From positions 416,001-480,000 of the forward strand of contig CM000152.2 of assembly GCA_000004695.1 (NCBI GenBank): 64,000 nt of DNA, read 5' to 3'. The stretch's first letter is position 1, and each line of letters begins with the position of its first letter. The notes beneath the pieces are model-generated. The model saw only the letters and a program-made list of their open reading frames with translations. It had not been told where the DNA came from and did not search any database. The translations under genes and the position numbers were made by a program. The DNA is from Dictyostelium discoideum. Its lineage: Eukaryota. Of the stretch, positions 32,708 through 38,535 are shown piece by piece.

Positions 32708-35700
32708 TTAATTAATTTTGATTAATGATGGATTTGAGGATGAGGGGGAAACTAATGATGCAGACAAAGAACCAATCATAGGTGGTGAATTTAAACTATT
32801 TGAGCTATTGCTATTATCATTAATGTTTGAAATAGTTGGTAATGTTATAGGATGTGATGATGTTGGAATTGGAAATGGTAAATGAGATTGTTGTTGGTTA
32901 TGTTGCTGATTATGTTGTTGTTGTTGATGGTGATGATTCATTTGAGGTGAATTAAAATTATTATTATTATTATTATGACTATTATGGTTACTATTGTTTC
33001 CAAAATATTGAGGAGCAGAAAATAAATTTCTTTGGGTGGTATGTGAGTGGTCATAGAAATATGCTTGTGGGTGAACTGGACTTTGATGAGGACTTTGTTG
33101 GCTATTGTTATGAATCACTACTTGATGATGAACTGGACTTTGATGAGGACTTTGTTGGTTATTATTATGATTATTTTGATGGTGAGGATTATGATTATGA
33201 TGATGAACTGGACTTTGATAAATTGAATCATTATTTTGTAAAACTAAATTTGATTGGTGACTTTGAATTGGACTAGAATGAACATTAAGTTGATGATGTT
33301 GGTTACCTTGAACTGGACTAGAATGAACATTACCATTTCCAAAGATTTGGTGGTGAGTTAGTTGTTGTTGCATTTGTAATTGTTGTGGATGTAACAATAA
33401 TTCTGATTCACTCTTTGATCTCTTATCATTTGGTTGTTTATTCAATGGTAAAATTATTGATTCTTTTTCATCTCCAATTTTTCTTTTTTGTTTTAATTGT
33501 TGATTATTTGGACCAATAATTAAATTACCATGTTGTTGTAATTGTTGATAGTTATTATTATTATTATTATTATTATTATTATTATTATTATTATTATTAT
33601 TATTACTATTACTATTACTATTATTATTATTATTACTATTACCAGGACAACCCATTTCATTAAATGAATTTTGGAAACCATGGTTGCCATTAAATACAGT
33701 ATTATTATTACTACTACTATTACTATTATTACTATTGGTATTATTACTGTTGTTGTTATATGGGTTATAGGAGCTATTATTATCATTTGAAGAATTACAA
33801 TCTGGACAGAATAGATCAGAACCAGTTTTACCTAAAAACAAGTGGTAATTATGGGAAAGACAATCTTTGCAAAAGGCTTTTGAACATTGTTGATAGGGAT
33901 GGGTGGCAGAATTATTTTTACACTTTTGTAGTGGAACCTTTGTCTTGAAACACAAACAACACTCAACATTACCTTTATTTCCACTATGGACTTGATTTGA
34001 ATTATTATGATTTGTAGTGGTAGCAGTACTACTACTATTATTATTATTGTTATTATTGTTGTTTTGGTTTGAATTATTCCCATAAAATTGATAAAAATTG
34101 AAATTTGGGGAGTTACTCAAAACAGGTGTAGTGGTTGAGGAATCTGGTGATAATTTTGGAGAAATACTATTATTGTTATTATTATTATTGTTATTATTAT
34201 TGTTACCATTTAAATTATAAGGTAAGAATCCACTATTTTGGATTAAGTGACTGTGTAAATGTTGATGGCTATGATGGTGATGTTGATTTTGATGGTGGTG
34301 TGGATGAGGATGTAGATGTTGTTGATGGTTGCCATGATGTAGATGTTGTTGTTGTTGTTGTTGTTGTTGTTGTTGTTGTTGTTGTTGTGGTTGTTGTTGT
34401 TGTTGTTGATGGTTGTTATGATGTTGGTGAGTATTATGATTTGTTGTAGTAGTTGTTGTGGTTGTTATTATGGCGGCGGTTGGAGGAGGAGGCGATGATT
34501 GAAGTTTAAGATGTTGTAAATTATTAATATTGTTATTAATATTGGTATTTGTAGGAGAATTCACAGTGGCTGTTGCATTATTATTACTATTGTTAGGCTG
34601 TTCTGAAATACTAAAATTAGAACTATTATTATTTCCCCCACTAGAATTATTATTATTATTTGAATTGGGTCCATCAATTGAACCTAATGTTGGTAATAGT
34701 GGAGTTTTCTTTGGTGAATTAAAGAGTTCACTTGACATTGTTGAAATTGGTGAACCAACAACTGAAGATGCAGTTGAAGATGATGATGAGGAAGTATTTG
34801 TATTGGTATTTGTATTTGTATTTGTATTGGTATTTGAATTAGTATTAGTGGTGTTATTATTATTATTATTATTATTATTATTATTATTATTATTATTATT
34901 ATTATTATTATTATTATTATTATTATTATTATTATTATTATTATTATTATTATTATTATTATTATTATTATTATTATTATTATTTGAATTGTTAAGGTTA
35001 TTGTTATTATTATTATTGTTGTTATTGTTATTTCCATTTGTATTATTATTATTATTATTAATATTATTTGATGTAGTAATATTTTTTAATTGTTTTATTG
35101 GGGTTGAATTTGTGGAAGCCGATTTAACGCCACCAGTTTTCAATGATTTTGTTTTAATTTTTTTAGATTTTTTAGACTTTTTGAAAGATTTTGAAGATTT
35201 TGTTGGTGAAGACATTGATGATTTCATTTTTTGAACTTCATCAGGATCGACACCATCAAAATCAATTTCATCCAATGATGAAGATGATGAAGAGTCATCG
35301 GTATCGTCACCGTCGTCATCAATCTCTTGTAATTCTTGTAAATTTTCATCTCCTTCTCTAAAGTTACTCCACATACCGGTGTATCTACCAATTGATGTGA
35401 ATGCTTTCTTATATCTTGATAATACAGTACTTAATCTATTTTTAATATTATCTTCAAATACTAAAATAAAATTAAATATTAATATTAAAAAAAAAAAAAA
35501 AAAAAAAAATAAAATTATTATTATTTAATATAAATTACCCATTTCTCTATTGAAAGCAAAAGAATCTTGATGAGATTTAACATATGAAGCGATTTCAATT
35601 TGATGAGAGAATCTATACTTTTTAATGATTTCTAAATTATATAATGCAGTATGAGCAACTTCTTTCCAAGATTTTGAAAGATGTTTTAGTGTGAATTTTC

Positions 35701-38535
35701 TAGATTGAGAACATGAATCACAATAAAATTCAAATCTACTATCAGATGGCCCAGGTAATACTGTACTACCAACTAAATCTTTCATTTCTATAATTTTTTT
35801 TCAATTAAATATACATATGTTAGGTAAAGTGGGAGAGAAAAAAAAAAGATTAAAAAAATATAAATAAAAATAAATAATTAAATACATACGAAAATTAATC
35901 ATTTTTGAACAAGATTTACAAGTTAGAGAATGATTACTATCTTGATCAATATAACCTTCCCATTGTTCACTACCTTTCCAAGTTAACAAACCTCTTTCAT
36001 CTTCGTCGATTGAATCACCATGTCTATAATTTGACCACATACCTGAATCACGTGCAAATGAAATGAAAATTTTTCTATTATATGATAATGTTGCTGTCAT
36101 AATATTTTTCATTTTTGAATGTAAAACTTATTATTATTAAAAATAAAATTTATTAATAAATATTTTGTATTTTTATTAAAAATTATTATTATAAATTAAT
36201 TACCTTTATCACGATCAGCCAATAACTCTTTTGAATGTTTATGTACATATTTAATGATTTCTCTATAGTGAGAGAATCTATATTTCTTTTCTCTTTCCAA
36301 ATTGAACAATGAGGTATGGATCATCTCTTTCCAAGTTTTAAATAAATGTCTGAAATAAAATTGACCTTTTGAACAATCAAAACATCTAAATTCATAATTT
36401 TTATCTTCAGGTCCTGGAATAACTTGGATGTTATTTGAAAGGAATACTTTACTTTCTGGAAATATTTGGAAAAAAAAATGAAAATAATTAACAAAAATAT
36501 GATCAAGAAATTAAAAAATAATAATAATAAATTAAAATTAAAATACTAACCAACGTTTTGTTTGTTGTTACATTTACAACAAATTAATGAGACTGAACCA
36601 GTATATACTTTATCGTATAATAAATTATTTAATGGGTAGTCATCATCAATTGATACATGATGTTGTGATGTAATTAGTTGGAATGAAATATGTTGTTGTT
36701 GTTGTTGTTGTTGATGTTGATTTTGATGTTGATGTTGTTGTTGATGTTGTTGATGTTGTTGTTGGTGTTGTTGTAGTAGTTGTTGGTGTTGTTGTTGTTG
36801 TTGTTGTTGTTGCTGTGGTTGTTGTTGTTGTTGTTGTTGTTGATTTTGTTGTTGTTGTTGTTGTTGTTGTTGTTGTTGTTGTTGTTGTTGTTGTTGTTGT
36901 TGTTGTTGTTGTGGTTGTTGTTGTTGTTGTGGTTGTTGTTGTTGTTGTTGTTGTTGTTGTTGTTGTTGTTGTGGTTGTTGTTGTTGTTGTGGTTGTTGTT
37001 GTTGTTGTGGTTGAGGTTGTTGTTGTGGTTGAGGTTGATGTTGTTGATGTGGTTGTTGTGGTTGATGATGGTGTTGTTGTTGTGGTTGCTGTTGATGTTG
37101 ATGTTGTGGTTGTTGCGGTTGTTGTGGTTGTTGCGGTTGTTGTTGTTGTGGATGATGATGATGATGATGATGATGTTGTTGTTGTTGTTGTTGTTGTTGT
37201 TGTTGTTGTTGTTGTTGTTGTTGTTGTGGTTGTTGTTGTAGTTGTTGTTGTTGGTGTTGATGTTGTTGTTGTTGTTGATGTAGTTGGTGTTGATGTTGTT
37301 GATGTTGAATTTGGATTTGTTGATGTTGTAGTTGTTGATTTTGTTGTTGTTGTAGTTGTTGGTGATGTTGAAGTTGTAGTTGTTGTTGAATTTGGATTTG
37401 TTGTTGTTGTAATTGTTGTTGGATTTGTTGTTGGATTTGTTGGTTTTGGTGAACAGACATATGTGTGAGATGGTTTTGATGTTGTGGTTGATGTTGTTGT
37501 TGGATTTGAGATGGTGGAAATTGTTGGGAAATTGGTTGGTTGTTACCAACTTGTATAGTTTTTTCATTTTTTATTTGATTATCAAATTTAGTTGGAGATA
37601 ATTGTTGTGGACTTGTGTTGTTGTTATTGCTGTTATGATTGTTTGAAAAATTATTTTGAGATGATAAGGTTAAAACAGATGATTGAGAGGATTGTAATTG
37701 TGGAGGTGAATTTAAATGTTGAGTTGACGATGATAATTGGTTTGGAACATGAGGTTGTGATGAACTTAATTCATTATTATTATTTATATTATTATTACCT
37801 ATTATTGTTATTATTGTTATTATTATTATTATTATTATTATTATTATTATTATTATTATTATTATTATTATTATTATTATTATTATTATTCCCATTTGTT
37901 TGGCCATTATTATTACTATTATTATTATTACTATTATTATTATTATTATTATTATTATTATTGTTGTTGTTATTGTTATTGCTATTATTATTATTATTGT
38001 TATTATTATTACTACCATTTATTCTATTATTATTATTATTGTGTAATGGTGGTTGCTGGATTTGTAATTGCTGAATATTATTCATAAATGATATCATTTG
38101 TTGGTTATTATTATTATTATTTAAAGATGAAGAGGATGATGAAGAAGATGATGAAGAGGATGGTGGTTGTGGTAATGGTACTTGGTTGTTGTTACTATTT
38201 ACAAAGATTGGGTCGTTTAGTTTATTTGTTTTATTATTGTTGTTCCAAATTGGTTCTTCCTTTTTATTCGATAAAGATAATAGTGATCCGATGTGAATAG
38301 AACCATTTGAATAATTATTATTATTATTTGAGTTGGAACTATTATTATTATTATTATTATTATTATTATTATTATTATTATTATTATTATTATTGTTGTT
38401 GTTGTTGTTGTTACTACCGCTATTATTATGATTAAAATCACTTGGTGTAGTTGATTTCGGATTTGCTAATGATAGCAATGAATATAAATCTTCGTGGTCG
38501 GGAACTGAATGAAATGATTTTAATGATTCATTCAT
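32708..38535 (-). CDS. Large composite low-complexity gene. Proposed exons 36551..38535, 36204..36455, 35890..36126, 35539..35787, 32708..35460. It has a frame discontinuity near 37797.
   Basis: ATG at 38535 in AT-rich context. Poly-N region and (CAA/CAG)n poly-Q tract of ~150 codons (36700-37250). Exon ends ..CCKCNNKQNV at a GTTAGT donor (36550). Four short AT-rich introns (95, 77, 102 and 78 nt), each with a GT donor and AG acceptor and consistent phase-1 junctions. Exons encode a duplicated ~150-aa module (LxC.xC.. / VxPGPxDxxYEFxCxxCS....F..HL.K.WKE..HT.L.NLE..KKYRFSH / ..GMWSN[YF]RxGD). The final 2.75-kb exon has poly-N/Q/H tracts and a Cys-rich stretch VECCLCFKTKVPLQKCKNNSATHPYQQCSKAFCKDCLSHNYHLFLGKTGSDLFCPDC. 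Confidence 0.55.

Follow-up and report, generated by a model that had tools for sequence, protein, structure and literature searches.

The cassette that is the subject of this report has its closest described counterparts in two protein families. In the Polycomb-like (PCL) proteins (PHF1/PCL1, MTF2/PCL2, PHF19 and Drosophila Pcl), a zinc finger, PHD2, packs against a winged helix of three helices and a beta-hairpin wing; this winged helix is the "extended homology" domain, and a Lys-Lys pair in its W1 loop contacts CpG (PMC9122586). ASH2L/Ash2, a subunit of COMPASS/MLL, has at its N-terminus a single-zinc, Cys4 "PHD" joined to a forkhead-like winged helix (PDB 3RSN and 3S32; PF21257 plus PF21198). 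In Dictyostelium discoideum, Polycomb-like proteins are apparently absent, and a separate Ash2 gene has been studied there (PMC13186565). Here, we describe a D. discoideum gene that lies in a stretch of 64,000 nucleotides (contig CM000152.2 of assembly GCA_000004695.1, positions 416,001 to 480,000 of the forward strand; hereafter, the window) and whose predicted product carries two tandem copies of a cassette of this type. The coordinates of all gene features are those of the window, and the features lie on its minus strand throughout.

Gene structure and orthologues

Does this locus hold one gene or two? An earlier note on the same DNA had proposed that a poly-Asn open reading frame (ORF), a 490-residue poly-Gln ORF and a set of exons encoding a duplicated module make up one gene of five exons. 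To this the orthologues speak directly. An exhaustive profile search with the module yielded 46 proteins, the top four of which are "hypothetical" proteins of D. purpureum (DICPUDRAFT_153527/F0ZP51), Tieghemostelium lacteum (DLAC_05093), Acytostelium subglobosum (SAMD00019534_019170) and Heterostelium album (PPL_01241). The window model and these four orthologues have the same architecture: an N-terminal peptide, both modules, an SP/TP-rich motif, an eight-Cys finger and a C-terminal tail. In the window, the N-terminal peptide reads MNESLKSF...LYSLLSLANPKS (38449-38535, with the start codon at 38533-38535), and its motif, M-x-x-[VIL]-K-S-[FY]...[LIV]-[YF]-S-L-L, is common to five dictyostelid species. 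The D. purpureum protein (P0001), from the nearest orthologue that was found, is 69% identical to the window model over residues 1-29 and 87% identical over the 306 residues of both modules; the C-terminal finger matches as well, and the C-terminus of the window protein (...NPSLIKIN) has its counterpart in ...NPLIKSI.

The intron positions and the gene neighborhood agree with these alignments. In D. purpureum, too, the gene is split by four phase-1 introns (61-75 nt); each of them falls at precisely the codon interrupted in the window gene, and the first exon is uninterrupted. The other species retain subsets: H. album has both module-2 introns, T. lacteum has the first module-1 intron, and a three-module paralogue has the second position. 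In the window and in D. purpureum alike, MRPL52 and an Asn-synthase-like gene adjoin the gene on the opposite strand; in the window, these neighbors are an Asn-synthase/GATase_7-like gene at 28626-30299 (plus strand) and a mitoribosomal mL52 exon at 32126-32305 (plus strand). From the orthologue matches, the shared intron codons and the synteny, we conclude that the poly-Asn ORF, the poly-Gln ORF and the module exons are a single protein-coding gene that extends from the ATG at 38535 to the TAA at 32708 (minus strand). The predicted product has approximately 1,810-1,824 residues, fewer than the roughly 1,900 given in the earlier note. In two respects the window copy departs from its orthologues: its protein is about 600 residues longer, by virtue of expanded poly-Asn and poly-Gln/His tracts, and it alone has a break in the reading frame. 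These huge tracts lie between the N-terminal peptide, the two modules and the C-terminal finger.

Two of the orthologous entries appear to be imperfectly annotated. In H. album PPL_01241 (GL290998.1, gene 501-4034), a 63-nt module-1 "intron" has a length of 3n, neither starts with GT nor ends with AG, and translates to NCTINIEVLKLMESGINVLPG, the piece that the zinc finger otherwise lacks; this "intron" appears to be coding sequence that was wrongly annotated. In T. lacteum DLAC_05093 (LODT01000025.1, gene 501-4982), the N-terminus as annotated, which involves introns of 240 and 563 nt, is apparently spurious; the conserved start, MNNDIKSF, is found at residue 59 of the annotated protein.

The first exon of the window gene comprises a poly-Asn-rich N-terminal region in frame 0 (37799-38535, a 246-codon ORF whose N-terminus is homologous to P0001), the frame break (37765-37798) and a second coding block (36551-37764; 34% GC). 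The latter block encodes a Ser/Gln/Pro-rich stretch, then a poly-Gln/His tract (37460-36693), and finally the beginning of module 1, which includes its first CxxC. Intron 1 (36456-36550; 95 nt, GTTAGT..CAG) interrupts the same codon in D. purpureum and T. lacteum. As the earlier note had it, the 490-residue ORF ends at this GTTAGT donor, indeed within the donor itself (G|GT TAG), and the split codon (G + AA) specifies Glu. The same note's statement that the downstream exon has no in-frame ATG was mistaken: exon 2 has one (the Met of WKEMIH), deep inside the domain. Exon 2 (36204-36455) encodes the second CxxC of module 1 together with helices one and two of that module's winged helix. It is followed by intron 2 (36127-36203; 77 nt, GTAATT..AAG), which occupies the same codon in D. 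purpureum and the equivalent place in the three-module paralogue P0007. Exon 3 (35890-36126) supplies the recognition helix and wing of module 1 and, past a linker, the first of the two CxxC pairs of module 2; intron 3 (35788-35889; 102 nt, GTATGT..TAG) falls at the same codon in D. purpureum and H. album; and exon 4 (35539-35787) does for module 2 what exon 2 does for module 1, supplying the second CxxC and the first two winged-helix helices. After intron 4 (35452-35538), exon 5 (32708-35451) carries module 2 to its end and continues with linkers, both acidic and basic, and with further poly-Asn and poly-Gln/His tracts; its 3' part holds the SP/TP motif, the Cys finger, the C-terminal tail and the stop codon, TAA (32710-32708).

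The window is 23% GC; its spacers and short introns are rich in AT, and AAT and CAA codons form long runs, as is typical of a Dictyostelium-type genome. The introns of the gene are 3-15% GC vs. 27-34% in the flanking exons, and the 300 nt located 5' of the start codon are 9% GC and include a poly-A run. The four introns as previously drawn, measuring 95, 77, 102 and 78 nt, are all GT..AG and all in phase 1, and their removal leaves one open frame that reaches the TAA.

One detail of that drawing, the acceptor of intron 4, is uncertain by 9 nt. Two acceptors, both in frame, lie 9 nt apart (TTTTAG|TATTTGAAG|). The proximal TTTTAG (35462-35461; 78-nt intron) comes first and is preceded by the better poly-T tract; its use would add Val-Phe-Glu, which aligns without gaps with Val-Leu-His of module 1. 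All four orthologues read NRE(M/I)|DNIKN, corresponding to the distal AG (35453-35452; 87-nt intron), so that they fit an intron ending at 35452. Alternative splicing at these tandem acceptors is possible. The three residues would be gained or lost in the loop that precedes the recognition helix of module 2.

The upstream frame break

The ORF that begins with the conserved ATG (38535-37795) ends AAT AAT AGG TAA. Frame 0 reads the AAT triplets as Asn as far as 37801, and frame +1 does so from 37796 onward. Between these two Asn-phase blocks stands AGGT (37800-37797): four nucleotides where three are expected. The earlier note had placed the break inside the AAT repeat; it is located instead in this AGGT, at the 3' edge of the repeat. 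Removal of any one of the four bases results in an uninterrupted ORF, ...NNNNSNNNINNNNELSSSQ (e.g., ...NNNNSNNNINNNNELSSSQPHV...). We thus regard a one-base insertion within AGGT, introduced by an assembly or sequencing error or by a strain-specific mutation, as the probable cause of the break. The note's contention that a single-base indel is needed for one long protein survives as the likeliest reading; as a formal alternative, removing a 34-nt GT..AG segment (GTAATAAT...ATTAAG, 37798-37765) also restores the frame.

That segment provides the best of the rival explanations, viz. that the genome sequence is correct and that the 34 nt are a genuine ultra-short spliceosomal intron, which would give the gene six coding exons and a product of 1,810 or 1,813 residues. 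Several observations weigh on that side and against an insertion. The segment starts in a canonical donor context (AG|GTAATA) and ends in AAG; its length, 3n+1, restores the frame exactly, such that splicing is formally possible; and at 9% GC it resembles real introns. Homology searches with the double module and with the unique stretch past the break found no transcript or second genome from the same species, these word-indexed searches being of a kind that also missed orthologues found later by exhaustive search.

We nevertheless prefer the indel, for five reasons. First, 34 nt is far shorter than the twelve introns of this family (61-102 nt) and lies below the median for D. discoideum introns, 104 bp (PMC4683709); in the literature on Dictyostelium introns, this median is given, and we found no stated minimum. 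Second, the segment has no poly-T tract before its AG, and the D. purpureum orthologue has no intron there. Third, in the frame that continues downstream, the segment reads as Asn codons, which is what coding sequence would look like. Fourth, had a base been inserted, the GT would come automatically from a codon AGT or GGT, and chance would supply an in-phase AG about one time in three. Finally, single-base assembly indels in Entamoeba are known to have given rise to spurious predicted introns of 32-35 bp that "repair" the frame (PMC1950532). A real intron at this place is thus unlikely. Longer frame-restoring GT..AG pairs (169, 187 and 367-466 nt) were considered and rejected: their removal would eliminate open, exon-like sequence of 31% GC.

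A second rival takes the stop codon at 37795 at face value, leaving two genes or products. The upstream ORF would then encode a separate 246-residue poly-Asn protein, or be the dead remnant of a frameshift in the strain, and the module protein would start at an internal ATG, such as that for the Met of ...HLTHMSVHQ at 37460. The sequence as it stands does carry an in-frame TAA with an in-frame ATG downstream, and real frameshifts can occur in laboratory strains. Between the two ORFs, however, there is neither an intergenic-type spacer nor an A-rich start context; the interval 37764-37612 is open and exon-like (31% GC); the module protein of five species begins with the conserved N-terminal peptide; and the 246-residue product matches no gene on record in an exact look-up. 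We therefore consider two products improbable, more so than the ultra-short intron.

Identity and fold of the duplicated module

The gene encodes two modules of approximately 140 residues each. Module 1 (model residues 636-776) spans 36002-36596, which includes introns 1 and 2; module 2 (model residues 799-936; local HMM match, 2e-77) spans 35333-35935, which includes introns 3 and 4. The internal duplication recognized earlier is amply confirmed: aligned over 136 residues, the copies show 43% identity (E = 3e-38), and both introns of each copy are found at homologous codons.

The earlier note could not assign the module to a known domain. Homology and predicted fold show it to be a PHD-winged-helix cassette of the ASH2L/Polycomb-like type. 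A profile built from the two window copies only, when compared with the PDB, matched MTF2 (1.9e-7), Drosophila Pcl (2.6e-5), PHF1 (2e-4) and ASH2L (3e-3), the match covering the PHD2 finger plus the winged helix. A 30-sequence family profile found the same proteins at 3.7e-26 to 3e-18. AlphaFold (AF2) with module 1 and the family alignment returned a model with a pLDDT of 90.9 and a pTM of 0.86 (a single-sequence run had a pLDDT of 47 and was of no use); using this model, Foldseek found significant matches only to PHF1, MTF2, Pcl and ASH2L. Two considerations temper this evidence: the E-values of the family profile are inflated, some of its members being PCL or ASH2 relatives, and the predicted structure covers module 1 only. 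The HMM search against Pfam that the earlier note had proposed did touch a relevant family, ASH2L-like_WH, and no other, but for the window protein the match was sub-threshold (E = 0.045). Among the 46 library matches, 16 contain ASH2L-like_WH, and others have PHD_ash2p_like, Mtf2_C, Tudor_2 or SPRY.

In the predicted structure, the module is a one-zinc (Cys4) half-PHD finger packed on a forkhead/H1-like winged helix. Only four Cys residues are invariant, in the arrangement CxxC..~28..CxxC, in 30-31 module copies; their counterparts in a PHD finger are C3, C4, C7 and C8, and they are the predicted metal ligands. Because these alone are invariant, one zinc site appears to have been kept, as in the finger of ASH2L. 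The latter finger is atypical in having a single zinc site. The conserved ligand set is thus C4 rather than the CxxC-H-H set envisaged earlier. It is scarcely credible that the module is instead a lineage-specific Cys/His zinc finger with CxxC-H-H coordination and unrelated to known domains: the sub-threshold Pfam match and the His residues that follow the second CxxC in both copies would suit such a finger, but these His residues are not conserved outside the dictyostelids, the four Cys residues are, and the PDB profile matches and Foldseek contradict it.

Comparison with Polycomb-like and ASH2L proteins

The PCL cassette, PHD2 plus the extended homology winged helix, furnished the best profile and structure matches to the window module. 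Both pack a zinc finger against a winged helix made up of three helices and a beta-hairpin wing, and both have the conserved W..(H)TALYNL helix and the F.S strand. They differ in that the window module keeps only the second PHD zinc site (four Cys) instead of C4HC3, in that the cassette occurs twice in tandem in the window protein, and in that the W1 loop is short, the wing loops (FARDSG and IGRYTG) having no Lys-Lys. Pfam detected no Tudor, PHD or Mtf2_C domain in the parts of the window protein that were scanned (module region, finger and N-terminal ORF), nor in the orthologues P0001-P0004, which were scanned over their full length.

With ASH2L, the module shares the single-zinc Cys4 finger and the forkhead-like winged helix described above. 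Against this likeness stand the sub-threshold Pfam match, the duplication of the cassette, the absence of the SDI motif and of the SPRY domain from the window protein, and the existence of a separate, bona fide Ash2 in Dictyostelium (PMC13186565). A SPRY domain was found neither in those segments of the window protein that were scanned nor in its orthologues at full length; two distant library matches were the only proteins to carry it. The window protein is neither a PCL protein, as it has no Tudor, PHD1, Mtf2_C or W1-loop Lys-Lys, nor Ash2, as it has no SPRY domain.

The C-terminal finger and the wider amoebozoan family

Near its C-terminus, the protein has a second type of finger (33797-33961), CxxC-x9-C-x11-C-x4-CxxC-x17-CxxC, whose eight Cys residues are invariant across the five orthologues and which resembles the first two thirds of zf-4CXXC_R1. 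The zf-4CXXC_R1 signature comprises eleven Cys (PMC9915587). Non-dictyostelid amoebozoan relatives of the module possess this domain, and the eight Cys of the finger align, Cys for Cys, with the first 8 of its 11; the last three signature Cys, a C-x-C-x2-C cluster, are absent from all of the dictyostelid orthologues. The finger is thus probably, though tentatively, a truncated CDCA7-type zf-4CXXC_R1-like domain, an assignment based on sequence comparison. It must be weighed against the Pfam results, which fall below threshold: the window finger had no match to PF10497 at E<=1, and the best orthologue, and the only one to register, was P0004 (E = 5.7e-4; 20.5 bits vs. a cut-off of 22.7). Compared with the PDB, a profile of the finger had non-significant RING/PHD-type matches only.

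Just 5' of the finger lies the SP/TP-rich motif SISPKLSPDSSTTTPVLSNSPNFNFY (34088-34168), present in all five orthologues; the motif, SPKLSPDSSTTTPVLSNSPNF, may be a proline-directed phosphorylation cluster. Downstream, a basic motif, KQKRKIGDEK...DKRSK (33340-33500, minus strand), is kept as KDKR.K in the orthologues and may be a nuclear localization signal.

The amoebozoan relatives of the module outside the dictyostelids contain PHD-winged-helix, Chromo and zf-4CXXC_R1 domains in the same order. In proteins from Planoprotostelium, Ceratiomyxa and metagenomic sources, these are combined with a PEHE-like motif, IPSWR...EDTSDE.Y..H, which occurs in P0009, P0012 and P0014 (Planoprotostelium) and in P0016 (Ceratiomyxa). 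This combination suggests that these four proteins are MSL1/KANSL1-like scaffolds with DNA and chromatin readers. Acanthamoeba XP_004340890 has been described as a class II 4CXXC plus Chromo protein (PMC9915587), and it may belong to the same PHD-winged-helix group. Unlike the amoebozoan class II zf-4CXXC_R1 plus Chromo proteins, the window protein has no Chromo domain, PEHE-like motif or last three Cys; neither the window protein nor any of the four orthologues has the PEHE motif in its C-terminal part. Within the dictyostelids, paralogues from P. violaceum, A. subglobosum and T. lacteum (P0005-P0007), annotated as hypothetical, have three PHD-winged-helix modules joined by Arg/Ser-rich (SRSRS) linkers.

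The intron codons are kept across the orthologues and the paralogue; consequently, the introns are older than the tandem duplication, and the duplication is older than the dictyostelid radiation. In the reading that we favor, a unit that already held two phase-1 introns was copied in tandem before the dictyostelids radiated. Chromo and PEHE appear to have been lost in the dictyostelid lineage, in which the PHD-winged-helix unit was duplicated; the paralogue lineage carries three copies.

Other features of the window

No tRNA genes were found within the 64-kb window. An ORF of 2,085 residues is located at 548-6805 (plus strand), the ORF at 44430-45950 encodes a leucine-rich-repeat protein, and the window has several more long ORFs.

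Discussion

Taken as a whole, we think it likely that the locus is a single gene with tandem PHD-winged-helix modules and a one-base insertion upstream of them. The gene is otherwise ordinary, and it does not represent a new kind of system. By analogy with its homologues, the product is probably chromatin-binding. We picture a nuclear chromatin protein, rich in low-complexity sequence, whose two winged helices would dock on DNA or nucleosomes; their basic recognition helices, KMKN..NRK and IKNR..SRYKK, do not vary across the orthologues. Several points argue for caution here: DNA binding is drawn by analogy from the homologues only, the Lys-Lys pair with which the W1 loop of PCL proteins reads CpG is not there, and a winged helix can serve for protein contacts as well. 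Because the CpG-reading wing is missing, a specificity unlike the CpG reading of the PCL proteins is to be expected. To our knowledge, dictyostelids have almost no cytosine methylation. One speculative possibility, less likely than not in our estimation, is that the protein, with its two tandem readers and a degenerated CDCA7-type finger, is an unrecognized chromatin-targeting factor that arose from an amoebozoan ancestor with Chromo, 4CXXC and PEHE (i.e., MOF-scaffold-like) elements, its winged helices having adapted away from CpG and toward the AT-rich genome of dictyostelids.

For annotation, the analysis fuses three ORFs into one gene, locates a probable one-base error (or artefactual mini-intron) at 37800-37797, and flags a 9-nt ambiguity in an acceptor. 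It also offers the first domain assignment, a tandem ASH2L/Polycomb-like PHD-winged-helix reader, for a family that is "hypothetical" in every sequenced dictyostelid, and it ties that family to a wider amoebozoan group in which the cassette is accompanied by Chromo, zf-4CXXC_R1 and PEHE-like elements. The gene thereby provides a modest evolutionary lead and a testable one on chromatin targeting in an organism that has no PRC2.

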